Positions 7,588 through 62,700 of a stretch of DNA of 64,000 nucleotides are shown in pieces. Position numbers and translations under genes: made by a program. The stretch spans positions 1,289,474-1,353,473 of the forward strand of contig BCKZ01000003.1 in NCBI GenBank assembly GCA_001600815.1, written 5' to 3'. A model generated the notes under the pieces. That model was not told the origin of the DNA. It ran no database searches and saw nothing but the letters and a program-made list of their open reading frames with translations. Position 1 is the stretch's first letter; every line of letters begins with the position of its first letter. Source of the stretch: Alloascoidea hylecoeti (taxonomy: Eukaryota).

Positions 7588-8300
7588 TTACCTTAATTTT
7601 TCAGTAAAATCATAAACAACAACATCACTATTCGGAGTTAAAGCAGTTAACCTTTTCGAATCGACACCAATTGAAGGATACAAATTATTTAAATTCTTTA
7701 AAAAATTTTAAATCATTTAAATTCCAAATCTTAATAGTATTTGTAGATTTTCGATTAACAGAAATGATTTTATTATCAGATATAAATAATGCCGAACCTA
7801 TTCTATTATCTGAAAATTCTTTTCTTTCACCTGTTTGTAAATCTAGAAATGTTGCTTCGTCTGAGCCACTAATAGATAGGTAATTATCATTTATTGTAAT
7901 GTAATCTGTAGGATAATCAAATCGATATTCTTGAATTATTTGACTAGTTTCAATATTAAAAGATGTTACAATTGAATATTTCGCACGGTATAGAAAACCA
8001 TTATTAATACAAATGTCACTAATGTAATTTTTTGGATCTTCTTTTATAAGATATTTAAAATTAAACTGTAATCGATGCTCTAAATTATTGAGATTTGATT
8101 TCCAAACCCTAATATCCGAGTTACCTTGGCATACAATATAATCATTGTATAAAGCGATACCATATGTAGAACTATAATTTCTCTGTGATGGAATTTCCAA
8201 ATAATCTATCAGTTTAAAATCTGGCAATTGCCAAATAATACAAGAACCACCCCATGAACCAGAAACCAAATATTTTTCATTAATATCCAAACAACCATTT
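7588..8300 (-). pseudogene. F-box/WD40 family pseudogene (5'-truncated, frameshift near 7685)
   Basis: DINEKYLVSGSWGGSCIIW...IKIWNLNDLK; the tail SIGVDSKRLTA..DVVVYDFTEKLR continues in another frame; no F-box. Confidence 0.88.
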
Positions 8301-8712
8301 GCTAGGCTAGGAAAGAAAGGGTTACCTAATTATGTCACGTGGTAGCGTAATTTTGTTAGAATAATTTCTGACACTATCGGTAGTTAAATTTTTTTAAAAA
8401 TCACTATTTACTATATCCTTTGGTATGAATATTCAGATAGAGGTTCTTTTGCTATCTTCCTTTTTAACAATTACTACAGAGCTTCTTTTCATCTGAATAT
8501 AAAACCCACAATCTTGATTACCTAATCAAGAGAAAATGTCAGAAACAATTATGAATAAAGCTGGTTCCATATTTTCAGCCGTGTGATGAATAAACATCGG
8601 CCATTCGATATAAAGTTCTTGACCCCTTTCTTTTCTTTCTTCGCACATTGTGACAATCACCACAAGAAACCATTTTAACAATTACAACTTGCGCCCACAC
8701 AAAAGATTTAAG

Positions 8713-9951
8713 ATGTCACTAGATTCTGTTTCCGATCTCCCTAATGAAATATCTCAAATAATCTTCTCAGATTTGTCAATTGCAACTTTACTTAATTGTA
8801 GAAAAGTTTCTAAATCATGGAAACAAATAACCGCAAACGATGGTATATGGAAATCAAAGTTTCAAGATCAAAAATATTGGAAATATTATAATGATGATTC
8901 AGAAACTGACTCGTGGTATGAATTATACAAAGAACGCTATCTTTTAGAATTAAATTGGAAAAATGGTAAATTTTCAACGCGTGAATTAAATTGTTATTCT
9001 ACCGTGACATGTTGTGTATTTTTTAAAAACTGGATTATTACTGGTTCAACGGAATTTACAATAAATATTTGGGATAATGAAACCTTTCAATGTTTAAGAA
9101 CACTAGGTAAATCAAGTTCCGAGATTTCAAGAGAAAATTTATCTGATAGTGAACTATTGGAATTAGCAAATGATATTGATAACATATTACCTTTCGGTGC
9201 AATTAATTGTATGGATATTAATGATGAATATTTGATTTCTGGTTCAATTGATTCTTCTTGTATAATTTGGAAATTACCAGATTTTAAGCCAATACAACGT
9301 CTGGTACCACCTGCGGAAGAACCTGGTTTACCTATAAATTATGTTAGATTATACAATGATTACATTGTAGGTTGTAATGATGAGTTCATTAGTGTTTGGA
9401 AATCAAGTCTTGATAATTTAGAAGATCAACCACCGTTGAATCTACAGCACAGTTTAGTAGTAAAAGGTCGCCTTAATGATGTTTGCATTCATAATGATAT
9501 TATATATTGTACTACAAAGTATGGATCTGTAATAAGATCTTGGTATATTGAAACTGGTCAAATGATCCAAGAATTTCGAAATAAAGAAGCAGCAAGCATT
9601 ACAGCAAATGATCAATACTTATTTGTTAGTGATTACAACAAAATAACAGTTTTGGATTTAGATACATATGAAACAACGAAAATTTTATGGGGTAAAGGAA
9701 CACTTTCATTATTTATAGTTAATGATAAAATCATTTCTGTTTATGATAGTTTTATTATTAGGATTTGGAATTTAAATGATTTAAAATTATTAAAAGAGTT
9801 TGAATATGTGCCATATGATTGGATTAGATTTAGCCCTATTTTTTCAATTAGTGCTGATTCGAAAAAGCTAGCTGCTTTTACTATGATAGGTGGTCTTGCT
9901 ATTTGTGATTTTACTAAAGAATTAAGGAGAAAATATTTAAAACATTTATAA
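8713..9951 (+). CDS. F-box/WD40 protein, copy A
   Basis: F-box LPNEISQIIFSDL..LLNCRKVSKSW, about 7 WD-like blades, C-terminus LRRKYLKHL. Confidence 0.9.
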   Translation: MSLDSVSDLPNEISQIIFSDLSIATLLNCRKVSKSWKQITANDGIWKSKFQDQKYWKYYNDDSETDSWYELYKERYLLELNWKNGKFSTRELNCYSTVTCCVFFKNWIITGSTEFTINIWDNETFQCLRTLGKSSSEISRENLSDSELLELANDIDNILPFGAINCMDINDEYLISGSIDSSCIIWKLPDFKPIQRLVPPAEEPGLPINYVRLYNDYIVGCNDEFISVWKSSLDNLEDQPPLNLQHSLVVKGRLNDVCIHNDIIYCTTKYGSVIRSWYIETGQMIQEFRNKEAASITANDQYLFVSDYNKITVLDLDTYETTKILWGKGTLSLFIVNDKIISVYDSFIIRIWNLNDLKLLKEFEYVPYDWIRFSPIFSISADSKKLAAFTMIGGLAICDFTKELRRKYLKHL

Positions 9952-11759: not shown

Positions 11760-12130
11760 CTACTTAATTGTTTTGTGAAGAATTTCCAAATCATAAAAAC
11801 CAATAGTTGATCAATGATGATTCAGAAACTAATTCATGGTATGAATTATATAAAGAACGTTATCTTTTAGAATTAAATTGGAAAGAATGATAAATTTAAA
11901 CAGTATACTTGGATTATGGTTCATTCTTAAATCACGTACTGCAATTACGTTACAATTTTTTAAAAAAATGGGTTATAACTGGTTCAACAAATTGGTACAA
12001 AACGATTTCGGGGTAATGAAATCTATCAATGCTTGAGTAGTTGGTGAACCGAATCTTGATATTTTAGGACAGGTGTTCTAACTAAACCTGGAGAATATTG
12101 AGAAAAATATTTATCAACAAAGGGAATTTT
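11760..12130 (+). pseudogene. degenerate F-box/WD40 N-terminal fragment
   Basis: DDSETNSWYELYKERYLLELNWK and WVITGS-like remnants, with indels. Confidence 0.8.
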
Positions 12131-12309
12131 GGATTTTGGTTTATTGTAATGATAAATATTAGTTTCTGATTCATCTGATTGTTGGTATACACTTGGGGAA
12201 TTATTAAACCTTAAACCATTAGAATGTCTTGGTAACATCAACACAAGAAATCTATTTATTTACAAATAAATGGTGTCACTATACAAATTATTATATTGTT
12301 TGTTTTGGT

Positions 12310-12404
12310 TTATGCTGTGTAAATTTATCATGTTTCCAATTTAATTCTAAAAGATAACGTTCTTTATATAATTCATACCATGAATTAGTTTCTGAATCAT
12401 CATT
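12310..12404 (-). pseudogene. inverted F-box/WD40 linker fragment
   Basis: 12333-12404 is the exact reverse complement of 11813-11884. Confidence 0.9.
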
Positions 12405-12437
12405 AATAGTCTACTTATTCAATTGGTACCGATTTCT

Positions 12438-12522
12438 AGAAAAGGTCGACTGGCTTTTACTATGGATGGTGATGTTGTTATTTATGATTTTTGAAAAATA
12501 TTTAAAATATTTGAAACATTTT
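12438..12522 (+). pseudogene. F-box/WD40 C-terminal fragment
   Basis: gcttttactatggatggtgatgttgttatttatgatttt = AFTMDGDVVIYDF, then a KYLKH-like tail. Confidence 0.8.
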
Positions 12523-13060
12523 TTTTCTTAACATTATTATAATTTAACTTAAATTTTTTTCTAGTTGGAAGTTTTAATTTGAAAGTTTATGAAAGTTTAT
12601 GGAAGTTAAAAAGAATAAACTTGATTATATTTATCAAATAGATCTATAGTAACTTACAGAAGGGTTCTTAGGTGTTCTTTGTTAATTTAATGTTGAGAGC
12701 TTTGATGCCTAATCTTCAAATGTATTATAGGGAGGAGCTTTCACAACCCTCAGAATTTGTCCTTTTAGTAAGTTCTACATACTATTTTGTTGGATGAGGT
12801 TTACACTAGAAAAGTTGTTGATGTTTTTATTTAAGGTGATCCCCAATATTGTATGATACAAATATGCCTAAAATAGTTACAAGTTCTATGCCACTACATA
12901 AACTGGTAGATAATTATTTTTTTATCTAGATTTCTAGTAATTTTGTGCACATCTGCCTACTTGGTATTTTGGCAGAAATAAGGAGTGAAGTTCGTAACCA
13001 TATAACCTTATTTTCTTCCCATTTGCTATTGGAACAATAACCATTTTAACAATTCCAATT

Positions 13061-14290
13061 ATGTCCTTACACAACAATCTTGAGACTACAATCGGTTTTG
13101 TTTCCGATCTCCCTAATGAAATATCTCAAATAATCTTCTCAGATTTGCCACCAAAAACCTTACTTAATTGTAGAAGAGTTTCTAGATCATGGAAACTAAT
13201 AGCTGAGAATGATAATATATGGAAATCAAAGTTTCAAGATCAAAAATATTGGAAATATTATAATGATGATTCAGAAACTGATTCATGGTACGAGTTATAT
13301 AAAGAACGATATATTTTAGAAAAGAATTGGATAAATGATAGATTTATACAGCATAAGCTAAGCGGCCATTCTGATGAAACACATTGTGTTAAATTTTTTA
13401 AAAATTGGATTTTAACTGGTTCAGATGATTGTACAATAAGAATTTGGGATAACGAAACCTTTGAATGTTTAAGAGTTCTAGGTAGACCAAATCCCGAGAT
13501 TATAAGAGAAAATTTATCAGCAGTTGAAACAAATGAATTTCATATGAGTGAAGTTAGATGTATGGATATTAATGATAAATATTTGGTTTCTGGTACATCT
13601 GATGGTTGTTTAATTTGGAAAATGCCAGACCTTAAACCAATAAAACGTCTTGTAACATCAACACAAGATAGTTTTACATTTATAAATGGTGTTACTTTAT
13701 ACAATGATTATATTATATGCCATTGTTTTGAGTATATTGAGATTTGGAAATCAAGTCTTGATGTTTTAGAAAATCGATTAGAGTTTAATATACAACACCG
13801 TTTAAAAGGAGATGGTTTCATTAGTGATTTTTGCAATCATGGTATTATATATTGTAGAAAATTTAGAGGTATAGGATCCTGGAATATTGAAACTGGTCAA
13901 ATGATTCAAGAATTTCAATATAATCAAGCAGTATGCCTCACAGTAAGTGATCGATACTTATTTGTTAATCAATGTGACAAATTAATAGTTGATGATTTAC
14001 AAACAAATAAAACAATAAAAATTTTATCAAATGAAGGAGCAGTTTCATTATTTATAATTAATAATCAAATAATTTCTATTAATGATGAATCAACTATTAA
14101 GATTTGGAATTTAAATGATTTAAAATTATTTAAAGAATTTAAAAATTTAAAATATGAAGAATTAAATTTATGGCCTATTTGTTCAATTTGTTGTGATTCA
14201 AAAAAACTAGCTGCTTTCACTATCGATGGTGATGTTGTTATTTATGATTTTACTGAAAAATTAAGGAAAAAATATTTAAAATATTTATAG
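13061..14290 (+). CDS. F-box/WD40 protein, copy B
   Basis: Intact 409-aa ORF: F-box, GHSDETHCVKF..TGSDDCTIRIWD, tail LRKKYLKYL. Confidence 0.93.
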   Translation: MSLHNNLETTIGFVSDLPNEISQIIFSDLPPKTLLNCRRVSRSWKLIAENDNIWKSKFQDQKYWKYYNDDSETDSWYELYKERYILEKNWINDRFIQHKLSGHSDETHCVKFFKNWILTGSDDCTIRIWDNETFECLRVLGRPNPEIIRENLSAVETNEFHMSEVRCMDINDKYLVSGTSDGCLIWKMPDLKPIKRLVTSTQDSFTFINGVTLYNDYIICHCFEYIEIWKSSLDVLENRLEFNIQHRLKGDGFISDFCNHGIIYCRKFRGIGSWNIETGQMIQEFQYNQAVCLTVSDRYLFVNQCDKLIVDDLQTNKTIKILSNEGAVSLFIINNQIISINDESTIKIWNLNDLKLFKEFKNLKYEELNLWPICSICCDSKKLAAFTIDGDVVIYDFTEKLRKKYLKYL

Positions 14291-14393
14291 TTTATTGAAA
14301 ATTGAAAATAAGCATCGATATATCGTTGCTTTCACACTCTTTTAAATAATTTTAGATTATTTTCAAATATTAATAGTAGAATAATGAGGAACG

Positions 14394-14700
14394 GAAATGA
14401 TTTTATTATCAACGTCAATTAATTCAATTTATCCTTCATGTGGGCCTTCATCTGATAAAATATTTGTTTTATTTGTTTTGTAAATTCAGAACTGTTAGTT
14501 TGTCGTAGTCACTAACAAATAAGTGTTCATCATTTATTGGAATACACTTGATTATATCGAAATTCATAGATTTTTTAACCAGTTTCAATATTCCAAGCAA
14601 GTTTTCTACGGTGTAATATTAAAACCATTATGAATGCAAATACCAGGAACAAAATCTTTTAAACTGTGTTGTAAATTTAGCTGTAGTTGATGTTTCCAAA
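14394..14700 (-). pseudogene. degenerate inverted WD40 fragment
   Basis: The reverse complement contains WNIETG (accagtttcaatattcca), QTNK..ILSDEG and DNKIIS remnants. Confidence 0.7.
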
Positions 14701-14731
14701 CTATGGCCAATATAATCTTGGAAATACTATA

Positions 14732-14970
14732 ATGGTATGAATAAAGAATAAAGAACGTTATCTTTTAGGATTCAATCGGAAAAATAATAAATTTACACAG
14801 TATAAATTAAGTGACCATTCTAAAATCATTATGTAAAGAACGTTATCTTTACAATTAAATTAGAAAAATGATAGATTCACACAATACAAAGTTAAATCAT
14901 TCCGAATAAAACATGTATTGTAAATTTTTATTATTTTTCCAATTTAATTCTAAAAGATAACACTCTTTAC
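14732..14970. repeat. three copies (two sense, one antisense) of the KERYLL.LNWKN linker segment
   Basis: aaagaacgttatctttt at ~14750 and ~14835; ttccaatttaattctaaaagataa at ~14937. Confidence 0.8.
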
Positions 14971-15497: not shown

Positions 15498-16160
15498 TTA
15501 TGGTGATACCGCCCGTTTGAATAGACACCATGAACCAGCAGCGAGTCCCATTAGACCACTAGCAATTCCCATTGGTTTCAATCCTTTAGAAGATTTGAAA
15601 ATAGCACCGGCTATCATTCCGGAACCAATGGAATTAATATCTTCATGCTTACCTCTTATATAACCAATCGTACTATTAATAAGATTATACGTAACAGCCA
15701 AAACACCAGCAGAATTACCTAAGAAAGGACCTCTTTTTGTAATTGCATTTAAAATTGTGTTAAGTTTGATTCTGCCTGGGGCATTTGGTGGAATATTTCT
15801 AATTCCTTCGGAAAGACCATATGCACCACCAACACCCAAACCTAATAGATAAACAGTACCAGTACCGTAACATAAGTCATCTGTCCAGCCTCTGCTTGGA
15901 AGAAGACCCTGTCCACCACTTAAATTAGTTAGGGCATCGTCTTCAATATCAAGGTACTCTAAAGTTTGGCCTAAACCGGCGAGTGGATGTAATTGTGTTG
16001 TGTCGAGAACATCTGGAGTTAAGAAAGATGAAACATCTTGGACTGAAGCTGGATCAAAACCCAAAGCATTTTCCGCAGCGGATCCCTCTGATAGAGACTC
16101 CGATTTGGTGGGATATGACTGTTCTTTACTTGATGATGATGATCCAAATAACCAAGACAT
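15498..16160 (-). CDS. TIM23: mitochondrial inner-membrane translocase subunit Tim23
   Basis: LPSRGWTDDLCYGTG, LNTILNAITKRGPFLGNSAGV. Confidence 0.97.
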   Translation of the reverse strand: MSWLFGSSSSSKEQSYPTKSESLSEGSAAENALGFDPASVQDVSSFLTPDVLDTTQLHPLAGLGQTLEYLDIEDDALTNLSGGQGLLPSRGWTDDLCYGTGTVYLLGLGVGGAYGLSEGIRNIPPNAPGRIKLNTILNAITKRGPFLGNSAGVLAVTYNLINSTIGYIRGKHEDINSIGSGMIAGAIFKSSKGLKPMGIASGLMGLAAGSWCLFKRAVSP

Positions 16161-16734: not shown

Positions 16735-19700
16735 ATGTCGCGATCACAAATAGAAGAAACTCGATTGAATGAGAAGTTTAACTATGCAAGTCTACCTCCC
16801 CACTTCATCGGATTGAATAAAGTTGATGTTGCAGAGGCAGGTCCCGTCAAGGATTTTGTTCTATCACACGAAGGCCATACGGTTATCACTTCCGTAAGTT
16901 TAAATATATACACTTGAGACAGCTGGCACCGAGCTATACTTATAAGAAGTTAGCTGCTAATATTTCTTGTTTTCAATAGATTCTCATTGCGAACAATGGT
17001 ATCGCTGCTGTTAAAGAAATCAGATCTGTACGTAAATGGGCGTATGAGACATTCGGTGATGAGCACATAATATCATTCACCGTAATGGCTACTCCGGAAG
17101 ATCTGGAAGCAAACGCTGAATATATCAGAATGGCTGATCAATTTATTGAAGTCCCTGGTGGTACGAATAATAATAACTACGCCAATGTGGACCTCATTGT
17201 AGATGTTGCAGAAAGAACTAACGTTCATGCTGTTTGGGCTGGTTGGGGGCATGCTTCTGAAAATCCCGATTTACCTGAGAAATTAGCAATGTCTCCAAAG
17301 AAAATTGTATTTATTGGTCCTCCTGGTAATGCAATGAGATCTTTGGGTGATAAAATCTCTTCTACAATTGTTGCACAACATGCCAAAGTACCATGCATTC
17401 CTTGGTCTGGTACTGGAATTGATACAGTTCATGTGGATCCAAAGACAAATTTAGTATCCGTAGATGATAATATTTACAATCAGGCCTGTTGTAGCTCTCC
17501 AGAAGATGGTTTGGTTAAAGCGCGTAAAATTGGTTATCCTGTTATGATCAAAGCATCTGAAGGTGGTGGTGGTAAAGGTATTAGACAAGTTGAAAAAGAA
17601 GAAGATTTTATAAGATTGTATCACCAAGCTGTTGATGAAATTCCTGGTTCTCCAATATTTATAATGAAATTAGCTGGAGGAGCTAGACATTTAGAAGTTC
17701 AATTATTAGCTGATGAGTATGGTAATAATATTTCTTTGTTTGGTAGGGATTGTTCTGTTCAAAGACGCCATCAAAAAATAATCGAGGAAGCTCCAGTTAC
17801 AATTGCTAAAGAAGGTACATTTGCCAAAATGGAAGAAGCGGCTATTAGACTTGGTAAATTAGTCGGTTATGTTTCTGCTGGTACAGTTGAATATCTTTAT
17901 TCTCATGATGATGATAAATTCTATTTTTTGGAGCTTAATCCTCGTCTACAAGTTGAACATCCAACTACAGAGATGGTATCAGGTGTTAATTTACCAGCTG
18001 CTCAATTACAAATTGCAATGGGTATTCCTTTACATAGAATACAAGATATTAGGTTACTTTATGGTACAAGTATTCATACTTCAACAAGAATTGATTTTGG
18101 ATTTTCCTTGGAATCATCATCTAAAACTCAACGAAGACCTAAACCAAAAGGTCATATAACTGCTGTTAGAATTACTTCTGAAGATCCAAGAGATGGATTT
18201 AGACCTTCTTCGGGTATGATACATGACTTAAATTTTCGTTCTAGTTCTAATGTCTGGGGATATTTCTCTGTTGGAAATCAAGGTGGAATTCATTCTTTTT
18301 CTGATTCTCAATTTGGTCATATTTTTGCATATGGTGAAAATAGACAAGCCTCAAGGAAACATATGGTTGTTGCTTTAAAAGAATTATCAATTAGAGGTGA
18401 TTTTAGAACAACTGTCGAATATTTAATAAAATTATTAGAAACTGAAGATTTTGAAAAGAATAAAATTACTACTGGATGGTTAGATGAACTTATTTCAAAT
18501 AAATTAACTGCAGAAAGGCCAGATCCTACTGTAGCAATTATTTGTGGGGCAGTTACAAAAGCTGAAGCTGCTTATGAGGAACAGATTAAACAGTATACTA
18601 CTTCTTTAGAAAGGGGACAAGTAACTTCTCATGATGTGGTGAATACCTCTTTCCCTGTGGAATTTATTTATGAAGGGAAACGCTATGAATTTACTGTAAC
18701 TAAATCTTCTCCGGATTCGTATACTTTGTTCATAAATGGATCTAGAGCCGAGATTGGTGCTCGTTCATTAACAGACGGTGGATTATTAATATCAATTGGC
18801 GGTAAAAGTCATAGCGTTTTTACAAAGGAAGAAGTCGGTGCTACAAGATTATCAATTGATTCCAAAACATGTCTTTTAGAAGTTGAAAATGATCCAACAC
18901 TACTAAGATCCCCATCTCCTGGTAAGTTAGTTAGATATCTGGCTGAAAATGAAGATCATATCAAAGCTGGCCAAACATATGCTGAAGTTGAAATCATGAA
19001 AATGTCTATGCCGTTAATTTCTCAAGAAGATGGTACTATTCGTCTGATAAAACAACCTGGATCTATCATCACTGCTGGTGATATTTTGGCAATTATATCT
19101 TTAGACGATCCTTCAAAACTTCAATATGCTTTACCTTTTGAAGGAAACTTACCCGATCTTGGAAGTCCCAATAACATTGGTACTAAACCTGCTCAAAAAT
19201 TTATGCATTATTCAAATATTATTGAGAATACTTTAGCTGGTTTTGATAATCAAGTTTATATCAAAGATTCATTGGAAGAGCTTATTAAGGTTTTAAGGGA
19301 CCCACAATTACCATACAGCATATGGAAATTTCAAATTTCATCTCTTCATAGTAGAATACCTCAAAAATTAGATGATAATTTGAATGGTATAATTGAAAGA
19401 ACACAACAAAGGCATCATGATTTCCCATCTAGACAATTATTAAAAACAATTGAAAAATATCAAAAATTGGAAAATTCTTCAATTTTTAATGAAATTGTCT
19501 CGCCATTATTAAAAATATCAAAAGATTTTGAAAATGGAATTATTAGTCATGAATATTCAATTTTATCTAAGATATTAGATGAATATTATAATGTTGAAAT
19601 TATGTTTTGTGGATCTATGACTCGTGATGAAGATATTATTTTAAAATTAAGAGATGATAATAAAGATAATATTAATTGGGTCGTTAATACAGCAAGATCT

Positions 19701-51858: not shown

Positions 51859-52770
51859 AAATATATAATCATGATCAACAGTCGATGGTATCTTCTTATT
51901 ATGCTCATAGTGTTAACTTTATTAGCCGTACATATTTTTATACATGCATAATTATAATAAAAATATATGAGAAAATGCGATACGTGGACCCTAAAAGGGT
52001 GAAATCCTAAGCTTTCTAGGGTGAAAATGATCATTCATATACATATCATGTGATGGGAATTATCCGTTTGAGATGTAAGTTAAAAGATAACATTTTTTCA
52101 TCCATATTCGTGATAATTTGCAAATTAATTAGTGATGATTTGTGCATTTAATTGGTTTATTTATTAAATATAGTTTATTTTATTTGAGAGTCATTTGGTG
52201 ATGTTTACAGAAAATTATTAGTATACGTAATAATATACCTAAATTTAACTATATGAATCTTGAAGATAGGTTCAAGAATAAATTAGAGGCAATAAAGAAA
52301 AGCTACCACTGAATTAATTCTCTTAGAAACATGGGTAGGAACTACTAGGAAATAGCGAATTAATAGGTTTCCATCTGGAGAAATGACCAAAAACGAAGCA
52401 CCGAACTATTCGCTTAAAAAGAGATGTAATAATTGAAAAGTAAACCCACTGTGAAAACGAAGAACATATAGTTACTACACAAAGTAGTACACCTCTGTTC
52501 AGTGTTTATATAGATGTCTACTTGAAAGACTAAATGTATATCAAGCAAGCTAATTGAAAGCTAAAAGCAAAATAGTCTATCACCCTAGTATCCTATCTTT
52601 CATTTTCAATATGGTGAATTCATAGTGGAAAGATTATATTTCCAACTGATCAACAATCCGCAGTGGAGATGAAATTCTTACAATTATGTATGCAGGCCCA
52701 TTTAAAAAGAATGGTTGATATTATAAATCAAAACTTCTTCAAGAAACAATGTCTATTTTCAATTAATAGA

Positions 52771-54015
52771 TTATAAATGTTTTAAATATTTTTTCCTTAA
52801 ATTTTCAGTGAAATCAAATACAACAACATCACCATCCATAGTAAAAGCTATCCTTTTCGAATCAGCGCCAATTACACGAGGAGTAATTTCTAACGATTCT
52901 TGACCTATACTTTCAAATTCTTTGAATAATTGTAGGTCATTTAAGTTCCAAATCCTAATAGTAGTATCAAGATTAATAGAAATGATTCTATTATTAACTA
53001 TAAATAATGCAGCTGCTCCTTCATCTGATAAAATATATATTTCATTTGTTTGTAAATCCATAAGTAATACCGTATTGTAATTACCAACAAGTAAGAAATA
53101 ATCAGTTGCTGCAATGCAATCTAGAATATTAAATTGAAACTCTCGGATTATCTGACCAGTTTCAATATTCCACGTTCTGATATTGAAATTCCCAGCACCA
53201 TATAGAATACCATTTTTGATACAAAAACTTCTAACGGAATCTTCTGGGTCTAAACGGTATTCCAAATTAAACTGTAGTCGGTCTGTTAAATCATCAAAAC
53301 TTGATTTCCAAACACTAATATTGTTATCATTACATACAATATAATCATTGTATAAGGCAACAGCTTTTATATATGAATAACTTTCTTCGTGCGTTGATGT
53401 TATCAGACGTTTAACTTGTTTAAAATCTGGTAATTTCCAAATTATACAAGAACCATCATATGAACCAGAAACCAAATATTTATCATTAATATCAATAGAA
53501 CTAACCTCACCCAAATGAAATTTTGGATCAGTAATTAATTCCAATTTATCCGCTGATGATGAAACTTTTCTTAAAACCTCAGGATCTGGTTTACCTATAA
53601 CTTTTAAACATTTAAAAGTATCGCTATCCCAAATTCTTACTGAACAATCTTCTGATCCAGTTATGATCCAGTTTTTAAAAAATTTAACACAGTGTGTTCT
53701 GCCAGAATGACCTTCTAATATATGCTGTGAAAATTTACCATTTTTCCAATTTGATTCTAGAAGAAGATTTTCTTTATACAATTCATACCATGAATCGGTT
53801 TTTGAATCATCATTATAGTACTTCCAATATTTTTGTTCTTGAAACTTTGATTTCCATATACCATCATTTTCGACTATTTCCTTCCATGACTTAGAAACTC
53901 TTCTGCAAATGAGTAGAGCTATTATTGGTAAATCTGAGAAGATTGTTTCAGATATTTCATTTGGGAGATCGGAAACAAGATCGATTGTCATCTCAGTGTT
54001 TCTGTGTAAGGTCAT
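52771..54015 (-). CDS. F-box/WD40 protein, copy D
   Basis: ATG 54015 MTLHRNTEMTIDLVSDLPNEI; intact to LRKKYLKHL. Confidence 0.92.
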   Translation of the reverse strand: MTLHRNTEMTIDLVSDLPNEISETIFSDLPIIALLICRRVSKSWKEIVENDGIWKSKFQEQKYWKYYNDDSKTDSWYELYKENLLLESNWKNGKFSQHILEGHSGRTHCVKFFKNWIITGSEDCSVRIWDSDTFKCLKVIGKPDPEVLRKVSSSADKLELITDPKFHLGEVSSIDINDKYLVSGSYDGSCIIWKLPDFKQVKRLITSTHEESYSYIKAVALYNDYIVCNDNNISVWKSSFDDLTDRLQFNLEYRLDPEDSVRSFCIKNGILYGAGNFNIRTWNIETGQIIREFQFNILDCIAATDYFLLVGNYNTVLLMDLQTNEIYILSDEGAAALFIVNNRIISINLDTTIRIWNLNDLQLFKEFESIGQESLEITPRVIGADSKRIAFTMDGDVVVFDFTENLRKKYLKHL

Positions 54016-54480
54016 ATTGTAATTGTTAAAATGGTTAAAATGGTTAAAATGGTTCTCAATAAATATTCTGGCTTTTCCAATAACAAACAAGAAAGAGAAA
54101 AGGGTTATGCACTTTACTCCCTGTTTGGGGATCTCCAATGAACGCGATGAATCTACTTGTTTGTGGGTAGGACTACCAAATTTTCCTAGTAAAGCTAAAT
54201 GATTATCTGGGATATCACTGATTAATTTCCAAAAACAACGCTAATTAACTGCCAAACCTATCGCTAATCATTTTCGAAAATAGCGCTACCTCTATTATAT
54301 ATTAATAGGTGGAAAGTAAGACTCACCAAAAGGAATTAATTGTTCATAAAAAGTTATAAAGCATATACGTGTATAATTGTATAATATTGTAATTATGTAC
54401 TTATAATCTGAGCGCTCTAAAATCACAACATTGCACTTGCAATGAAGAATGAACTAGCCTTAAATAAGCCATCAGGAACC

Positions 54481-54501
54481 TTTTTTTTTTTTTTTTTTTT
54501 T
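54481..54501. repeat. poly(T)21 tract
   Basis: Read directly from the sequence. Confidence 0.95.
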
Positions 54502-54937
54502 GATCAATTAATACCATATCGTAAATATACTTAACGAGCAAACCTCTTGCTCCATAGAATTTTAAACATCTTAGAGTGCAATGAAAAGCTTTAAAAAAAA
54601 GTTATGAAATGTCTTCAGATATTATGATGATGATAATGCTTTACGTATTATAAGTAATAAAGTTTCAATAAATTTCGTCTGAACATCTACATGTATGAGA
54701 ATCTTACTATTTCACTGATATGGCTGTAAAAAAGTATTAAGAACTGGATCCCTCACCGATGTGCCAACTGCAAATACCCCTTCCAATCCAACTTACGTAT
54801 ACCCCTTATTGCTTTAGTATTAATACATGTACAACAAAATGTTTTTTAATATTATATGCATTAATAAAGGATTAATATTACCAATTGACATTCATTTAAG
54901 AAACCAAGTTTATTTTCAATTTTCAATTTTCAATAGA

Positions 54938-56188
54938 TTATAAATGTTTTAAATATTTTTTCCTTAAATTTTTAGAAAAATCAAAAACAACAACATCACC
55001 ACCTATAGTGAAAGCAGCTAACCTTTTAGAATCAGCACCAATTACACAAGGACTAACATCCAATGTTCCTCGTATTAAATTTTTAAATTTTTTAAATGAT
55101 TGTAGATCATTTATGTTCCAAATCTTAATATTACAGCTAAGATTAACAGAAATGATTTTATTATCAACTACAAATAATTGGCATCTGTCTTCATCGAATA
55201 AAAGCTTTGTTTCTTTCGTTTTTAAGTCCATAGCTGATACTTTGTTGCAATCACCAACAAACAAGTATTGATCATTTACAGAAATGCTATCTAGCATATG
55301 AAATCGAAACTCTTGGGTTATTTGACCAGTTTCAATATTCCAGGTTGTTACCTTGAAATTCCCAGCACTATATATAATACCATTTTTGATACAAAAACTT
55401 CTAACGGAATCTTCTGGGTCTAAACGGTATTCCAAATTAAACTGTAGTCGGTCTGTTAAATCATCAAAACTTGATTTCCAAACACTAATATTGTTATCAT
55501 TACATACAATATAATCATTGTATAAAGCAACAGCTTTTATATATGAATAACTTTCGTGCGTTGATGTTATCAGACGTTTAACTTGTTTAAAATCTGGTAA
55601 TTTCCAAATTATACAAGAACCATCATATGAACCAGAAACCAAATATTTATCATTAATATCAATAGAACTAACCTCACCCAAATGAAATTTTGTATCATTA
55701 TTTTTTATTAATTCCAATGTATCCCATGCTGACAAAACTTTTTTAACACTCTCATGGTTTGGTTTTCCTATTACTTTTAAACATTGAAAAGTATCACTAT
55801 CCCAAATTCTTACTGAACAATCTTCTGATCCAGTTATGATCCAGTTTTTAAAAAATTTAACACAGTGTGTTCTGCCAGAATGACCTTCTAATATATGCTG
55901 TGAAAATTTACCATTTTTCCAATTTGATTCTAGAAGAAGATTTTCTTTATACAATTCATACCATGAATCGGTTTCTGAATCATCATTATAGTACTTCCAA
56001 TATTTTTGTTCTTGAAACTTTGATTTCCATATACCATCATTTTCGACTATTTCCTTCCATGATTTAGAAACTCTTCTACAAATGAGTAAAGATTCTGGTG
56101 GCAAATTTAAGAAGACTATTTGAGATATTTCAGAAGGAATACTGGAAACAAAATCGATTGCTGTCTGAAGACTTTGGTGTAAGGACAT
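54938..56188 (-). CDS. F-box/WD40 protein, copy E
   Basis: Intact 416-aa ORF. Confidence 0.93.
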   Translation of the reverse strand: MSLHQSLQTAIDFVSSIPSEISQIVFLNLPPESLLICRRVSKSWKEIVENDGIWKSKFQEQKYWKYYNDDSETDSWYELYKENLLLESNWKNGKFSQHILEGHSGRTHCVKFFKNWIITGSEDCSVRIWDSDTFQCLKVIGKPNHESVKKVLSAWDTLELIKNNDTKFHLGEVSSIDINDKYLVSGSYDGSCIIWKLPDFKQVKRLITSTHESYSYIKAVALYNDYIVCNDNNISVWKSSFDDLTDRLQFNLEYRLDPEDSVRSFCIKNGIIYSAGNFKVTTWNIETGQITQEFRFHMLDSISVNDQYLFVGDCNKVSAMDLKTKETKLLFDEDRCQLFVVDNKIISVNLSCNIKIWNINDLQSFKKFKNLIRGTLDVSPCVIGADSKRLAAFTIGGDVVVFDFSKNLRKKYLKHL

Positions 56189-56921
56189 ATTTCAATTGTC
56201 TAAATGGTTTAAATGATCTATATGGTTGTATTATTGCCCTTTCCAATAACAATAATATGGGAAGAGAATAAATGAAATCTAGTGAATCTTTATTATTCTA
56301 CATATTTTAATTAACTGCGTTATAATATAGAGTGAATGTAGGTTCCTTCATTTTTGTAGGTTGATCATACACTAATTAAGTCCAAGTTTTTATTCCACGT
56401 GGTGAAATAAGTCAGAACAAGTAGTGAAATATTTGTTAGATAAATTATGTAATTATCTAAAATTATATGCCCAAATATCTTCCTTAAAATTTACGAAATA
56501 TACTACTTACAAGGAATCACTAAAAGGATGTTACTGCATTGAAACTATATTCAATCGTACGTGTAAATATTTATGACTAATTCGAATATAATTGAGCCAA
56601 ATAACTAAATATGTTGTCACCTGGGTAAAACATATTTCAATACCTTAAGTAGAAAGAGTCCATTTATTAAAAAGTCTAGAAGCGCCCATGAGAACCAATA
56701 ACTATAACAATCTCACTATATCACCTATTATGGGTGAACAATAGTATCAACAGCTAGATCACTCAGCAATATGTCAAATATGTTTCTATTCTAACCCCTT
56801 ACATTAATATTAATACTATTAAATGTTTTTTAATTATTACGCATGTCACAGTTCTCTAGTAATGAGGGTTTGATACTATTAATTGAAATTTCTTTAACAA
56901 ACGATATCGATGCTTATTAAA

Positions 56922-58163
56922 TTATAAATATTTTAAATATTTTTTCCTTAAATTTTCACTAAAATCATAAACAACAACATCACCATCCATAGTAAAAGCA
57001 GCTAGCTTTTTTGAATCAATACCAATTGAATTAGTAGACAATAAATCTAAATTTTCATTATCTAAAATTTTAAATTTTTTAAATAATTTTAGATCGTTTA
57101 AATTCCAAATTTTAAAACTACTACATTCATGATTAATAGAAACTATCTTATTATCAGATATAGATAATTTAACTAGTCCTTCTTCTTCTTCTTGATCTGG
57201 TAAAATTTTTATTTCATTTGTTTTTAAATCTCGAAATGTGAGCACCTCATTCTCAGAGACAAATAAATATTGAGCATTTAATCCATGACATGCAATTTCA
57301 TCATATTTGAATACTTGGATTTTTTGACCAGTTTCAATATTCCAGGATGTTATTAAAGCTTCAGATTCTCTAGAATATATAATATCATTATGAATGCAAA
57401 TTAACCTAATCCAACTTCCATTTTTCAAAATATGTTGTAAATTAAACTGCTGGTGTTGTTCTAAATCATCAAGACTTAATTTCCAAACCATAATACTATA
57501 ATCAACACAACATACAATATAATCATTGTATAAAGCGAGACCACATATAGGTGGTGGACTGTAATCTCTTTCTATTGGAATTATGAGACGTTGTATTGGA
57601 TTAAAATCAGGTAACTTCCAAATTATACAAGAATAATCATATGAACAAGAAACTAGATATTCATCATTAATGTCAATAAGCCAAACGACGCCGAAATGAG
57701 TTTTAATATCCACGTCTTTTACTAATTCTGAAATTTCTATCGCCGTGAATATCCGAAAATCTGGATTACCTAAAACTCTTAAACCTTGATAACTTTCACA
57801 GTCCCAAATTATAATTGTACAATCTGAACCAGTTATAATCCAATTTTTAAAAAATTTAACACACCATGTACAGTAAGCACGGGAACATAAGTGATATCGT
57901 GTGAATCTATCATTTTTCCAATTTAAGTCTAAAAGATACCGTTCTTTATATAATTCATACCATGAATCAGTTTCTGAATCATCATTATTGTATTTCCAAT
58001 ATTTTTGATCACAAAATTTTGATCTCCATAAATGATCATTATCAGCAATATCTTTCCATGAATTAGATACTCTTCTACATTCAAGTAAAGTTGTTGGTGA
58101 CAAATTCAAGAAGATTATTTCAGATATTTCATTTGGGAGTTTGGAAACATGATCGATCGTCAT
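56922..58163 (-). CDS. F-box/WD40 protein, copy F
   Basis: ATG 58163 MTIDHVSKLPNEI; intact to LRKKYLKYL. Confidence 0.92.
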   Translation of the reverse strand: MTIDHVSKLPNEISEIIFLNLSPTTLLECRRVSNSWKDIADNDHLWRSKFCDQKYWKYNNDDSETDSWYELYKERYLLDLNWKNDRFTRYHLCSRAYCTWCVKFFKNWIITGSDCTIIIWDCESYQGLRVLGNPDFRIFTAIEISELVKDVDIKTHFGVVWLIDINDEYLVSCSYDYSCIIWKLPDFNPIQRLIIPIERDYSPPPICGLALYNDYIVCCVDYSIMVWKLSLDDLEQHQQFNLQHILKNGSWIRLICIHNDIIYSRESEALITSWNIETGQKIQVFKYDEIACHGLNAQYLFVSENEVLTFRDLKTNEIKILPDQEEEEGLVKLSISDNKIVSINHECSSFKIWNLNDLKLFKKFKILDNENLDLLSTNSIGIDSKKLAAFTMDGDVVVYDFSENLRKKYLKYL

Positions 58164-58999
58164 CTTAAGATTTTTGTCCGAGGATAGCAATTGATTGTTA
58201 TAATTAGTATAATTATGGGTTGCTAAATCCCGAGTGTTTCGGTAGAAGGTTCCGGGAAAGAAGCACATCTTATATTTTTTAAGCTGATAAGCTTTAAAAT
58301 AAAAAAGTGATTAAATTTATATTTATGTTAGCTATACCAATTTCTCTATGTTTCAGGAGTGTCAATATAATCAATTACAATACCATAGATTAATGGGCTG
58401 GAATGACAATATTTGATGAAAACAATCAGGCTAAATAACATTAATTAATATAAATATATATGTTTCTTAATATATATTATTTTGATTTTCGTATATCTTA
58501 ATTATAACCTCTAGTATATTAAGGGCTATTCAACGTATTCAAAATTTAAATTTGGATTAATTTCTTCTCTATTATTTTTTCTTTTTAATGTTAGATAATC
58601 TTAAAAGTAAAGTTAAAAATGACAGAGTGGATAATAATAACTTAAATAAAGACCCTATGAATAGTACCATAACATCCCTTGAAACAAGAAAGAAATACAG
58701 GTATTACCATGCCCAGCATGCAAATGTTCAAAAAAATCAAAATTCATTTATGATATTACACCAAAGTAATGTTAATTCTGCACCATCAGATAAAGACAAG
58801 GAGAAAGGTAATGATATGGTATGGATAACTCTTTTGAATTTAGTTTTTCTAAAGAGGTTTAGCAGGGTCGAGATACAAACGAATTAAAATTGATAAAGAT
58901 CACTCTGAATCAGATTCCTATGATTAACGTTCATATATTCAAATTTGTTATTATCAAATATGATAAATAAGTATAAATTAAATATTTTATAATAAAATA

Positions 59000-59860
59000 T
59001 TAATATTGATTATTTACTGCGATGCTATCTAGATTACGAAATTTAAACTTTTGGATTATTTGACCAGTTTCAATATTCCAGGTTATTACATTGACATACC
59101 CAGCAGTATATAAAATTCCATTTTTGATACAAATGCATCTAACGAATTTTCCTATGTCTAAACCGTATTCCAAATTAAACTGTAGTCGGTGTTCTGAATT
59201 ATCAAGACTTGATTTCCAAACCCTAACATAGTTATTAATAAATACAATATAATCATCGTATAAAACGACATCTCTTATGATATAATTTTGTTCTAATGGT
59301 ATTATCAGACGTTTAACTTGTTTAAAATCTGGTAATTTCCAAATTATACAAGAATCATCAAATGAACCAGAGACCAAATATTTTTCATTAATATCAATAC
59401 AACTTACTTTATGAAAATGATGTTTTATATCCTCATTTTTTATTAATTTATATTCAGCATGACGTCTTCTTGAAATCCCAGGATCTAGTTCACCTAATAC
59501 TCTTAAACATTGATAAGTATCATTATCCCAAATTCTTATTGTACAATCTGCTGAACCAGTTATAATCCAATTTTTAAAAAATTTAACACAACATGTTCTT
59601 TCAGAATGACCAATTAATTGATGCTGTGAAAATTTACCATTTTTCCAATTTGATTCTAAAAGATACCGTTCTTTATATAATTGATACCACATTATTGTAT
59701 TTCCAATATTTTTGTTCTTGAAACTTTGGTTTCCAGATACTATCATTTTCAGCTATTTGTTTCCATGATTTAGAAACTTTTCTACAATCAAGTAAAGTTG
59801 TTACAGGTAAATCTGAGAAGATTATTTGAGATATTTTATAAGGGAGATCAGAAACATCTT
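59000..59860 (-). pseudogene. F-box/WD40 pseudogene (frameshifting deletion of DDSETDS; C-terminal blades lost)
   Basis: F-box VSDLPYKISQ is in a different frame from WYQLYKERY...; homology stops at VNNQY. Confidence 0.88.
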
Positions 59861-60286: not shown

Positions 60287-60287
<1 letters not shown>

Positions 60288-60339: not shown

Positions 60340-61716
60340 TTATAGTAAATATGTTATACCTGGTAATGCAATACTAAAAATACAACCAAGGTTTTTTTCT
60401 TTTGCCTTTTGATCTAAAATATGTAATATTCTTTGTCTTGGTTCTTTCCCAGTTTCAGTATCTTCTTTAACATGATTTATAATAATATTTAAACCAGATA
60501 ATGCTGCAGTTGTCTCAGGTTTTCTTTTAGTTAATCTTAAATTTAAATATGAATAAAAAGATCTTCTTGAACTACTAAAATCCGAATCAGAAGATGATGA
60601 AGATATATTTTTTGATTTATTATTATGATTTTTATTTTTTAAATTTTTTAAAACTTTTTCATTTAAATTTTCTAATTCATCAATTAAATAACATGGAGAT
60701 AAATGACCAAATAATTTATCAATATCAGGTTCATCAAAATATGAACATTCAATAATTATAGCAGATAATTTATTATTAATTATTAAATTTGATGCTTTTT
60801 CCCATATTAAATCATTTAAATTTGATGATGAAATTGAATCAGGTTCAACATCACCAAATATTAATATATAATTTTTAGAAATTTCATCTCTTATAAAATA
60901 AGCAGTTGATTCATATTTATGTTGAAAAATTGTTGATGATGAAGATGTATCATTAATATTAATTATTTGATCATTTTCAGGATATTTTCCATGAGATATT
61001 GGATAAGCACAAGCAAATAAATTCTCAGCAACTTTTTCATAATTTTCATAATTTTGATTATTTGATTTTAAAATATTTAAAGATAAAAATCCAGTTGATC
61101 CAGGACCAATATTAGTTAAATTTGGCCATATTATTCCATTAAAAATATGTTTTTGAATTGCGGAGATTGTTGATTCAAAACCAAATATTCGTTTTTTGGA
61201 TTGTTTTGTTAAATCAGCTGTCCCTATAACCAAGCCAGCAATATGATCGAGATGTGGATGGGTTAAACAAAATGAGGCGATGTATTCAGATAATATAAAT
61301 GAAGAATTTGAAATTATTGAATTATAGGGTAAATAGGATATTGGAAATGGAGAGTTTGTAACAGTACAGCGAATATAATGAGAAAGTGGACGAGAATCTG
61401 AATAAAATCGTAATATTTTTGGGGTTGATATTGTATTCCAAAGAGATGGGGGGTTAGAGTTGGAAGATCCCAAACAATTAATATTAGAAGCCGTTGTTGA
61501 AAGGCGATGATGCCGACGAAACCTGTTTTGAGCCTGGATTTGAGATTCGAGGATGGAAGCAATATTCGAAAGTAGGGAACCACCGTCCACACTCACTATA
61601 CAGTTAGGACACCAAGAAGTCTGATAGGATTTCAGCAGATACGAGGAAGTGGCACCGTCGAAGGGTCCTCCACTTGACCCCAGGACAGTGAACTGGAAGG
61701 AGTGGCCAGAGGGCAT
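60340..61716 (-). CDS. PDE1: class II (low-affinity) cAMP phosphodiesterase
   Basis: FTVLGSSGGP, THPHLDHIAGL, HIFNGIIWPNL, FGDVEPD, IIECSY, LFGHLSP. ATG 61716 preferred. Confidence 0.93.
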   Translation of the reverse strand: MPSGHSFQFTVLGSSGGPFDGATSSYLLKSYQTSWCPNCIVSVDGGSLLSNIASILESQIQAQNRFRRHHRLSTTASNINCLGSSNSNPPSLWNTISTPKILRFYSDSRPLSHYIRCTVTNSPFPISYLPYNSIISNSSFILSEYIASFCLTHPHLDHIAGLVIGTADLTKQSKKRIFGFESTISAIQKHIFNGIIWPNLTNIGPGSTGFLSLNILKSNNQNYENYEKVAENLFACAYPISHGKYPENDQIININDTSSSSTIFQHKYESTAYFIRDEISKNYILIFGDVEPDSISSSNLNDLIWEKASNLIINNKLSAIIIECSYFDEPDIDKLFGHLSPCYLIDELENLNEKVLKNLKNKNHNNKSKNISSSSSDSDFSSSRRSFYSYLNLRLTKRKPETTAALSGLNIIINHVKEDTETGKEPRQRILHILDQKAKEKNLGCIFSIALPGITYLL

Positions 61717-62519
61717 GGTATAAGTATGTAAATAACAAAAGCACAAACCGGGGGTGGTCTCAGAAGAGCTGCCAGGGATCTCGATGACTCGATGGTATGG
61801 CAGTTAATTGCAACTGCTGGGCGATGTCGGGTGCTGGTGATTCAGGAAAACAGACGTGAAATTTATGCACGGTGTTTGATATTTCCACGTAAAAGGATCT
61901 TCTATTATCGCGACCTTCCAGACAATCGACAATCACACGATTATCCTTATCACTCCCATCCACGGTTTTAGGTGTAGAAGTGTAGTTGCTCGGGGGGGCG
62001 GAGGCCACGCGGAGGCCACGCGGGGCCTGTCTACGGAGACATATACCACTGAAATGCTGGAAGTGTTCCAGAAGGCTTCCACCATCTTCCTTTTTGGGAC
62101 GAGCTCACAGCTGATCATGAAATTATCTCAAAAAATAGAAATTGGGCAGTCGTCAGCTGTTTTTCAACAACTATTTGACAAAAGGTGCAACTTTTTTTAG
62201 GCGTAACTGCTACAACATGGTCTTTAAAATCCATTAATATTTACAGGGTATGTGCTAAATATACACGAAATACATTGAATACCTCTCTATGAATTAATAA
62301 ACAAAAAGCTGTGAAACGAGAAACAGATGGCTACTAGGAAATAGAGCTGAAAGTGATAATTGTGTTCTTCAGCATAAAATTGGAACAGGAAGATTTTGAA
62401 AGTTGTGTTCTACGAAACTTTTCTCACGTCTAGTCAAACAGCAAATAGGGTTTATGTTATTCTTTGGTTTCTATTGGGTTATCCCCCATACCGGGTGGAA
62501 GCACTTAAAACTTCCGGAT

Positions 62520-62700
62520 ACTTTGGTATATGAATTATAAATATTTAGTTTCTGGCGCAACCGATTCTTCTTGTATAGTTAAGAAATCACCAGATTTCGA
62601 ACCAATAGATTGCTTGACACTACCAACGCAAATAATTACAAATTCTTCAACAATAATGGGTGTCGTCTTATACAAAGATTACACTGTACACTACACTAAA
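62520..62700 (+). pseudogene. degenerate WD40 fragment of the same family
   Basis: aaatatttagtttctggcgcaaccgattcttcttgtatagtt = KYLVSGATDSSCIV, then PDFEPI and LYKDY remnants. Confidence 0.75.

Follow-up and report, generated by a model that had tools for sequence, protein, structure and literature searches.

In the well-studied budding yeasts, F-box/WD40 proteins number only a handful, all of them conserved regulators. Larger and faster-evolving F-box families have been described in other organisms, and the closest analogue of the locus considered here is the mouse Fbxw12 cluster on chromosome 9 (Fbxw12 and Fbxw14-28), which is described as a lineage-specific, tandem-duplicated group of about 12 paralogs of unknown function, with many candidate positively selected residues in the WD40 substrate-binding channel (PMC3984280). 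F-box expansions in nematodes and plants are likewise described in terms of positive selection, clustering and a suggested function in countering foreign proteins (PMC8120010; Thomas, 2006, Genome Res, as cited in PMC12680543). The Caenorhabditis KSS and KSL genes are presented as encoding fast-evolving, clustered and largely species-specific F-box proteins that bring a target to SCF (PMC12680543). For the HNWD/NWD proteins of Podospora (HET-E, HET-D and HET-R), diversifying selection has been reported at d-a loop and b-c turn positions of the top face, the d-a loops and b-c turns being given in the same source as the top interaction face of the WD40 propeller (PMC1805685).

The window, by which we mean the whole stretch of DNA analysed (64,000 nucleotides), would belong to a budding yeast without a close named relative, and the array within it would be part of a larger family. 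Copies were inventoried from a listing of open reading frames under the standard code together with tblastn searches of the copies against the window. Six intact, intronless F-box plus WD40 genes were found on both strands, encoding 409-423 aa at aligned starts:

Copy A, 8713-9951, forward strand: 412 aa, F-box plus seven-bladed WD40 (open reading frame; Pfam F-box-like, E 4e-12).
Copy B, 13061-14290, forward strand: 409 aa (open reading frame, Pfam), a 99.8% match to database protein P0004.
Copy C, 48074-49345, forward strand: 423 aa, with a longer WD1-WD2 insertion (open reading frame, Pfam); database protein P0001 is identical.
Copy D, 52771-54015, reverse strand: 414 aa (open reading frame, Pfam), used for the AlphaFold model.
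Copy E, 54938-56188, reverse strand: 416 aa (open reading frame, Pfam), tandem neighbour of copy D and mosaic with it.
Copy F, 56922-58268, reverse strand: 448 aa from the first ATG, or 413 aa from the Met at 58163 that is aligned with the other starts.

Copy A starts at a Met ~8 codons downstream because the ancestral start region is mutated. Dead copies or fragments were located by tblastn in eight further regions:

7591-8290, reverse strand: truncated pseudogene retaining the C-terminal 60%, with one frameshift (99.5% match to database open reading frame P0281).
11813-12491, both strands: fragment cluster with seven in-frame stops.
14375-14821, both strands: fragment cluster with two stops.
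37861-39181, reverse strand: old full-length pseudogene with at least 17 stops and several frameshifts, at 30-40% aa identity over long matched stretches.
46747-46931, reverse strand: C-terminal fragment with one stop.
49762-50295, forward strand: N-terminal pseudogene piece of 176 aa with four stops.
59003-59855, reverse strand: pseudogene covering residues 14-308, with one frameshift and without the C-terminus.
62530-62688, forward strand: short fragment covering residues 185-236.

The six intact genes of ~410 aa in the original prediction were recovered by the reading-frame listing, tblastn and Pfam alike, and its count of at least nine pseudogenes or fragments also stands, the eight regions becoming at least ten when the pieces on both strands are counted separately. 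The array was further said to lie on both strands, interleaved with housekeeping genes, and its neighbours are indeed ACC1, a Tim17-family gene, TFA2, RPA34, RTA1 and a PDE gene. In ACC1, five of seven CTG codons align with Leu in two or more of four reference proteins (three of them in all four), and each F-box gene contains 0-1 CTG; with CTG mostly at Leu columns and so scarce in the F-box genes, non-standard CUG decoding was set aside as irrelevant here. A tRNA scan of the window returned no hits.

All six copies exceed the Pfam cut-offs for the F-box families PF12937 (F-box-like; 40.7-52.2 bits, cut-off 24.3) and PF00646 (38.2-40.4 bits, cut-off 20.5), and four exceed that of the WD40 repeat family PF00400 (cut-off 27), copies A and F falling below it at 24.9 and 21.6 bits. 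No more than two WD40 stretches per protein pass Pfam, and the blades are therefore strongly different from one another. In a PDB sequence search the F-box, linker and WD1 are colinear with FBXW7, beta-TrCP and Cdc4. The AlphaFold model of copy D (pLDDT 77.9, pTM 0.77, most blades at pLDDT 85-95) is composed of F-box helices at residues 19-61, a linker helix at 76-92 and seven four-stranded blades, and its best Foldseek matches are FBXW11-SKP1 and beta-TrCP-Skp1 (E 2e-26, TM 0.64-0.68), followed by Fbw7 and Cdc4. The FBXW-type identity first assigned to these genes is thus upheld by Pfam, the PDB search, the model and Foldseek, and on this evidence the copies would be F-box/WD40 SCF substrate receptors, with Skp1 binding and ligase activity predicted for them.

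Descent from a beta-TrCP/Pof11/FWD-1-like gene, as was also suggested, is plausible and weakly supported. The propeller has seven blades in beta-TrCP and eight in Cdc4 and Fbw7. The family shares with beta-TrCP/FBXW11 (6wnx, 1p22, 6m90) the layout of F-box, linker helix and propeller as well as the seven blades, and finds its best structural match there, while two distant relatives in the outgroup are annotated by JGI as 'F-box and WD-40 domain protein 1/11'. It differs in having ~14 residues before the F-box, a sequence identity of 16-19% and no D domain (PF12125), which is absent from the six copies (Pfam, E<=0.01) and is not among the best 25 of 30 Pfam families for the database protein P0014. 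Also against the proposed descent, a PDB phmmer search with copy D places FBXW7 (1e-35) ahead of FBXW11/beta-TrCP (1e-22 to 1e-20) and Cdc4 (2e-19), and P0014 gives a similar ranking, with repeat matches inflating the scores in both searches.

Pairwise identity among the copies is 54-63% at the aa level (78% between D and E) and 71-79% at the nt level (88% between D and E), far above chance. A protein database search returned 19 relatives at 47-59% identity, the next relatives reaching only 28-37%; among those listed, 18 of the 19 relatives and 13 of 14 short family open reading frames do not map to the window. At least 18 full-length paralogs and at least 13 fragment types therefore lie outside it, none of them sharing more than 61% identity with a window locus, for a family total of at least 24 full-length genes, a count that beyond the window rests on database proteins probably, though not provably, of the same species (P0004 and P0281 are one residue off window loci, and P0155 and the window ACC1 agree at all 700 compared residues). 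When 1.84 billion representatives are searched with a profile, family members score 534-640 bits and the next full-length colinear protein at most 251 bits, and by such sequence comparisons the family is lineage-restricted. A full-text literature search found no report of such a fast-evolving F-box/WD40 family in yeast.

Copies D and E are 98-99% identical at alignment nt 101-350 and 501-850 and only 71-78% identical at the ends, and the pseudogene at 59003-59855 is nearest copy A in its 5' part and copies D and E in its 3' part. The repertoire most likely turns over by duplication, decay to pseudogenes and segment exchange between neighbours, and the birth-and-death evolution originally proposed is supported by the dead copies and fragments in the window. 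Homology between copies stops ~100 nt past the open reading frames, and the duplicated unit is therefore one gene. This bears on a selfish or incompatibility role, in which some copies would be the antidote or the killer of a toxin-antidote or hybrid-incompatibility system. Such a role has precedents, as described, in the Caenorhabditis KSS F-box antidotes (PMC12680543) and the F-box gene neib-1 (PMC11573670), and the evolutionary signature here is like that of the fast-evolving Caenorhabditis F-box genes. However, the one-gene unit leaves a two-gene toxin-antidote module unsupported, and no linked partner gene was seen, the D-E and E-F gaps being 922 and 733 nt; we regard this role as very improbable.

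Variability is concentrated in one part of the protein. Entropy reaches 2.24 bits in the d-a and 2.16 bits in the b-c loops of the top face, compared with 0.69 and 0.93 bits in the bottom loops (top versus bottom, p about 2e-15, with the top face assigned from the strand topology of the predicted model rather than from coordinates); the F-box stands at 0.94 bits, the linker at 0.69 and the tail at 0.64. Clustering of variable sites on the propeller top face had been anticipated, as had nearly fixed F-box/linker and inner-strand motifs and a WD1-WD2 insertion and pre-strand residues that differ in sequence and length; all of these are recovered, the motifs being nearly invariant across a 24-sequence alignment, unlike the insertion and the pre-strand residues. 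As variability peaks in the top-face loops, a top-face pocket common to all paralogs, like the phosphodegron-binding one of beta-TrCP, seems unlikely.

Neutral decay of the intact copies is ruled out, as the open frame was kept in 0 of 3000 neutral simulation replicates for each of the six genes. Whole-gene maximum-likelihood (ML) dN/dS is 0.31-0.60. Site models, in our own implementation on six sequences only and with posteriors taken at maximum-likelihood estimates rather than by Bayes empirical Bayes, favour M2a over M1a (LRT 35.5), with w2=8.7 on 3.4% of 387 codons; in twelve data sets simulated under M1a the LRT did not exceed 1.93. Of the eight sites with P>0.8, seven fall within d-a loops, a class of 64 codons out of the 387 (Fisher p 1.8e-5). 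The dN/dS>1 signal that the original prediction called for is thus present in the site models and located in the top-face loops.

The main alternative bearing on this signal is that birth and death are neutral and the loops merely relaxed, in which case all copies would perform one generic function through the F-box, bottom face and tail without selection for new specificities. The many pseudogenes fit such a scheme, and the top loops as a class evolve at a near-neutral rate (NG86 dN/dS median 1.6; ML estimates unstable, median 0.6), with top-loop dN over whole-gene ML dS at about 0.75-1.6, near dN/dS = 1, and lack of constraint could therefore explain much of the variability. Pairwise ML dN/dS on top-loop codons alone was unstable (0.13 to 7.8) and was left out of the evidence. 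Segment exchange between paralogs can inflate site-model tests, loop misalignment can likewise yield false signals, and several of the selected sites, namely 371-378, are near indels. M2a nevertheless beats M1a without copy E (LRT 38.8), under a strict gap mask (35.4) and in both halves of the gene (12.4 and 30.3, each half fitted on its own tree, with breakpoints within a half remaining); moreover, the hypervariable sites 105 and 106 lie in an indel-free segment flanked by conserved residues, and one shared function would not obviously require at least 24 maintained copies. We therefore consider relaxed loops unlikely as the full account, and some top-face sites appear to be under diversifying selection, perhaps driven by conflict.

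Diversification might also serve endogenous sub-functionalisation, each paralog degrading a different host protein (metabolic or cell-cycle) out of regulatory need and not conflict. Motifs common to the copies in the upstream ~100 nt suggest co-regulation, and to our knowledge all well-studied FBXW proteins (Cdc4, Met30, beta-TrCP and Fbw7) target host regulators, which counts in favour of this alternative. Receptors of host regulators, however, normally conserve the top face, which is here the least conserved part, and high pseudogene turnover is unusual in core regulators. In the family tree, P0014 alone combines a short branch (0.16) with canonical GH/WD blades, the other 23 members being star-like with long tips. 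Such a division of labour among host proteins accordingly seems quite unlikely.

The reading we favour, and hold to be probably correct, is a lineage-specific, diversifying SCF substrate-receptor family that counts at least 24 full-length genes in a budding yeast. Its conserved F-box, which would dock on Skp1 and through it on the Cdc53/cullin-Rbx1-E2 core, is followed by a linker helix, likewise conserved and rigid, and at the C-terminal end by a seven-bladed WD40 propeller. The C-terminal tail and, in the propeller, the inner strands and bottom face are the constant parts, and the top-face loops, mainly the d-a loops and including the 30-residue WD1-WD2 insertion, the paralog-specific ones, such that each paralog may present a different binding surface and recruit a different target for ubiquitylation. 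Duplication, pseudogene decay and segment exchange between neighbours would renew the repertoire, with diversifying selection acting on some top-face sites. More tentatively, the receptor family may form a degradation repertoire resembling innate immunity, with the long, variable d-a loops serving as complementarity-determining loops. These would owe their diversity to duplication, gene conversion and positive selection, and would bind proteins of foreign or selfish origin (such as retrotransposon Gag/Pol, mycovirus capsids or killer toxins) and deliver them to the proteasome. With at least 24 members, a docking scaffold kept under purifying selection and presumed binding loops under diversifying selection, the family would be the first such case that we found in a yeast. 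If the organism can be grown and transformed, a small, intronless, haploid-genome system might make substrate trapping and knock-outs much easier, and this bears on the question of which proteins are recognised by the large, fast-evolving F-box families in worms, plants and mice.

Fast-changing, probably target-binding loops on a fixed remainder have precedents in worms, plants and mice, and we found no report of this pattern for yeasts. The Podospora HNWD/NWD proteins, as described, also constitute a fungal WD40 repertoire with diversifying selection on the top face, but they are NACHT-type NLRs with near-identical, concertedly evolving WD repeats and cell-death signalling, whereas the yeast proteins have an F-box at the N-terminus and dissimilar blades within one protein; a Pfam scan of the six copies found no NACHT or HET family, and the absence of a NACHT domain excludes an NLR/HET-type receptor. 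The Caenorhabditis KSS and KSL proteins share, in their published description, fast evolution, clustering and largely species-specific occurrence, and differ in their solenoid substrate domain and toxin-gene linkage, the yeast family having WD40 repeats and no linked partner seen. The nematode and plant expansions likewise combine, as described, a conserved F-box with a fast-evolving substrate domain, clustering and many pseudogenes, and the yeast family is itself lineage-specific and multi-copy, with pseudogenes, a conserved F-box and a variable substrate domain containing dN/dS>1 sites; those expansions, however, comprise hundreds of members in multicellular hosts, with FTH/FBA2, FBA, Kelch or LRR as variable domains rather than WD40. 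A protein-atlas feature search places the FBXW12, FBXW9 and FBXW8 clusters among the look-alikes. The mouse Fbxw12 genes, in the account available, contain introns and form one tandem array, while the yeast genes, which we treat as analogues, are intronless, belong to a unicellular host, number at least 24 and lie on both strands among housekeeping genes and at further loci; the two families have in common the F-box plus WD40 architecture, lineage specificity and candidate selection in the WD40 domain.

Six paralogous open reading frames of 409-423 aa were recovered in the window by ORF listing under the standard code, and all of them exceed the curated Pfam cut-off for the F-box. The WD40 repeats exceed theirs in four of the six, copies A and F falling slightly under.

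Intact F-box/WD40 copies in the window
8713-9951, plus strand: copy A, ORF under the standard code
13061-14290, plus strand: copy B, ORF under the standard code
48074-49345, plus strand: copy C, ORF under the standard code
52771-54015, minus strand: copy D, ORF under the standard code
54938-56188, minus strand: copy E, ORF under the standard code
56922-58268, minus strand: copy F, 448 aa from its first ATG, with a Met at 58163 that aligns with the starts of the other copies

Searches with these copies (tblastn) located eight more regions that are dead copies or fragments, recognized by stops, frameshifts or truncation. At one extreme is an old, full-length wreck with at least 17 stops (37861-39181), at the other a copy with a single frameshift (59003-59855). 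The copy counts, coordinates and list of nearly fixed motifs in the original prediction were borne out by the ORFs, by tblastn and by an alignment of 24 family sequences.

The structure of copy D was modelled with AlphaFold2 and the family alignment (pLDDT 77.9, pTM 0.77). In the model, residues 19-61 fold into three to four F-box helices and residues 76-92 into a linker helix; seven blades of four strands each follow, the propeller being closed by an N-terminal strand, and a 30-residue insertion that carries two short helices separates blade 1 from blade 2. Its best Foldseek matches in the PDB are the FBXW11-SKP1 and beta-TrCP-Skp1 complexes (E 2e-26, TM 0.64-0.68), followed by Fbw7 and Cdc4; sequence searches of the PDB return the same four proteins with FBXW7 on top. 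Membership of the FBXW (F-box plus WD40) class is secure. The descent from a beta-TrCP-like gene that had been proposed alongside it is no more than plausible: FBXW7 comes first by sequence, and the beta-TrCP D domain is absent in Pfam scans of the window copies and of P0014, a database relative from outside the window.

Every residue of copy D was placed in a structural class from the strands of the model, with the register confirmed by blade-1 landmarks (GH preceding strand a, D within the b-c turn, WD closing strand c), and column entropy was calculated over the 24-sequence alignment. In WD40 propellers the top interaction face is formed by the d-a loops and b-c turns (PMC1805685). In the modelled classes these are the variable positions, with mean column entropies of 2.24 bits for d-a loops and 2.16 for b-c turns against 0.69 for a-b loops and 0.93 for c-d loops on the bottom face (Mann-Whitney p ~2e-15 for top versus bottom loops, unchanged without the long insertion). 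Mean values elsewhere are 0.96-1.56 bits for strands, 0.94 for the F-box, 0.69 for the linker and 0.64 for the C-terminal tail, and the motifs described earlier as fixed correspond to the inner strands and their bottom-face turns. The concentration of variable sites on the propeller top face, which the original prediction had set as a test, is thus supported on the predicted fold.

Synonymous divergence between copies is unsaturated (maximum likelihood [ML] dS 0.20-1.07), and whole-gene dN/dS is high (ML 0.31-0.60; NG86 0.62-1.03). In neutral simulations with substitutions at the observed branch lengths and indels ignored (3000 replicates per gene), copies acquired a mean of 8.5-13.8 stops and none of the 3000 replicates stayed open for any of the six genes, which shows that the frames of the intact copies are maintained. 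By region, NG86 medians of dN/dS are 1.6 for top loops, 0.73 for strands, 0.49 for bottom loops and tail, and 0.34 for the F-box and linker. The ML estimates are 0.49 for strands, 0.12 for bottom loops and tail, and 0.29 for the F-box and linker; those for top loops are unstable, and the ratio is about 1 when their dN is divided by whole-gene ML dS.

Codon site models of our own implementation (Goldman-Yang type, F3x4) were fitted to 387 gap-free codons of the six genes, the M0 model giving w = 0.47. Compared with M1a (lnL -4880.83), model M2a (lnL -4863.07) assigns 3.4% of codons to w = 8.7 and gives a likelihood-ratio statistic of 35.5 (p 2e-8), a figure to be read in light of the six sequences, the in-house code, posteriors taken at point estimates and the exchange of segments among paralogs. 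The statistic is 38.8 without copy E, 12.4 and 30.3 for the first and second halves each on its own tree, and 35.4 when codons within three positions of a gap are dropped (278 left). It did not exceed 1.93 in 12 data sets simulated from the M1a fit. Seven of the eight codons with a posterior above 0.8 fall in the modelled d-a loops, a class of 64 codons among the 387 (Fisher p 1.8e-5). Residues 105 and 106 immediately precede strand a of blade 1, and the stretch around them is free of indels and bounded by conserved residues. The expected signal of dN/dS above 1 thus appears to fall in the predicted top-face loops.

Copies D and E are tandem neighbours separated by 922 nt. Their identity is 98-99% across alignment nt 101-350 and 501-850 but falls to 71-83% at the 5' end, within the WD1-WD2 insertion and over the last 350 nt. 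The diverged segments are as divergent as those of unrelated paralogs, making both genes mosaics. This pattern suggests gene conversion that spares or replaces variable segments. The pseudogene at 59003-59855 likewise resembles A most in its first third and D/E in the rest, and together these mosaics indicate that gene conversion or unequal exchange reshuffles the copies.

With copy C as query, 5.8 billion proteins yielded 19 relatives at 47-59% identity, all from short contigs, the next best match standing at 28%. One of them, P0004, is copy B with one substitution, and the other 18 share at most 61% identity with any window locus. A profile search of all 1.84 billion cluster representatives found two full-length family representatives at 534-640 bits, with the next full-length colinear protein at no more than 251 bits; it also lists 14 short ORFs, judged on inspection to be pieces of the family, and one of these maps to the window. 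By these sequence counts, the family comprises at least 24 predicted full-length members and many fragments, and appears restricted to this species or very near kin. All members probably come from one genome, because three database proteins match the window, two at a one-residue difference and ACC1 identically over the 700 residues compared.

P0014 retains canonical GH/WD signatures in more blades than other members. In the tree its branch is short (0.16) and its sister group is a star-like radiation holding the other 23 sequences, in which D and E form the only pair among window copies (quick search, SH-aLRT 99). P0014 could be the conserved founder gene. It has 517 aa, but one of its internal Mets lines up with the starts of the other family members, so the extra length may reflect an in-frame ATG further upstream. 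Its closest named relative is a Peziza protein at 37% identity, and no named budding-yeast protein is among the 120 proteins listed.

Homology between copies covers the ORF and ~100 nt on either side, so that the unit of duplication is one gene, its short promoter and its 3' end. Upstream motifs are common to the copies, including a block immediately 5' of the ATG (e.g., 12950-13060, copy B). At the 3' side (e.g., 14261-14330, copy B) the last 27 coding nt are almost invariant: all six copies agree at 26 of the final 30 columns, counting the stop, and at half of the 14 nt that follow. Because synonymous divergence elsewhere is 0.2-1.0, the copies may share a regulatory element here, or the block may be a conversion tract.

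The stretch is AT-rich (G+C 27-37% per 2-kb window, assembly gap excluded), and the genes between copies encode a Tim17-family protein, ACC1, two DPBB-domain secreted proteins, RPA34, TFA2, an RTA1-like protein and a class-II cAMP phosphodiesterase. The ACC1 is 76-79% identical to that of every major budding-yeast group listed, favouring none, which places the organism among Saccharomycotina yeasts with no named species close to it. At five of its seven CTG codons, two or more of four reference proteins have Leu, so the standard code is adequate. Its ORF (17085-23540) starts at a Met near residue 97 of the S. cerevisiae protein, and the first ~95 residues must therefore sit in an upstream exon or another frame. 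The Tim17-family gene (15498-16160) adjoins ACC1, mirroring the ACC1-TIM23 neighbourhood of S. cerevisiae. The DPBB genes (23912-25039 and 28997-29851) are divergent paralogs (36% identity) on opposite strands, Ser/Thr-rich and secreted, with a C-terminal DPBB_1 (RlpA-like) domain. Two large ORFs without a Pfam family (34297-36726 and 40623-43163) flank the oldest F-box/WD40 pseudogene; they share a ~90-aa C-terminal segment with a Cys-containing motif (39% identity, E 3e-16) and weakly similar N-termini, and represent a second, older local duplication.

At the left end of the window lies a Ty1/copia-like element (2183-7136) with Gag/protease, integrase and RT ORFs (2450-6648), identical 95-nt repeats (2183-2277 and 7042-7136), and single N bases; a 370-N assembly gap (6672-7041) comes after the ORFs. 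Its 198-nt perfect inverted repeat (3595-3792/5156-5353) may be an assembly artefact. A 123-aa ORF ~350 nt upstream of copy C (47355-47726) is a putative DDE_3 (Tc1/mariner-type) transposase remnant, judged from a weak match under the Pfam cut-off. Across 48074-58000, 86-91% of sampled words are present in four DNA runs of three studies, one a wood-decay metagenome.

The best-supported reading of the array is a lineage-specific, diversifying repertoire of predicted SCF substrate receptors, in which a constant Skp1-docking module and scaffold would present a variable top face, while the repertoire turns over as genes are born, die and swap segments. The proteins bound may be foreign, may come from selfish elements or may be the host's own. 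The observation stands confirmed, with a strong evolutionary signature. The original prediction of a possible recognition or defence repertoire holds in part, entropy, site models and turnover upholding diversifying predicted SCF receptors, with beta-TrCP descent no more than plausible. Searches of open-access papers and bioRxiv turned up no description of a budding yeast with an F-box/WD40 expansion; a yeast is an unexpected host, and may ease testing what fast-evolving F-box families recognize. F-box antidotes of toxin-antidote elements offer a further precedent (PMC12680543), although a linked partner gene is not visible near the copies. The WD40 repertoires of Podospora NLRs are the closest concept among fungi (PMC1805685), nematode and plant F-box expansions are closest in concept (PMC8120010), and in both architecture and pattern of evolution the nearest analogue described is the mouse Fbxw12 cluster (PMC3984280).
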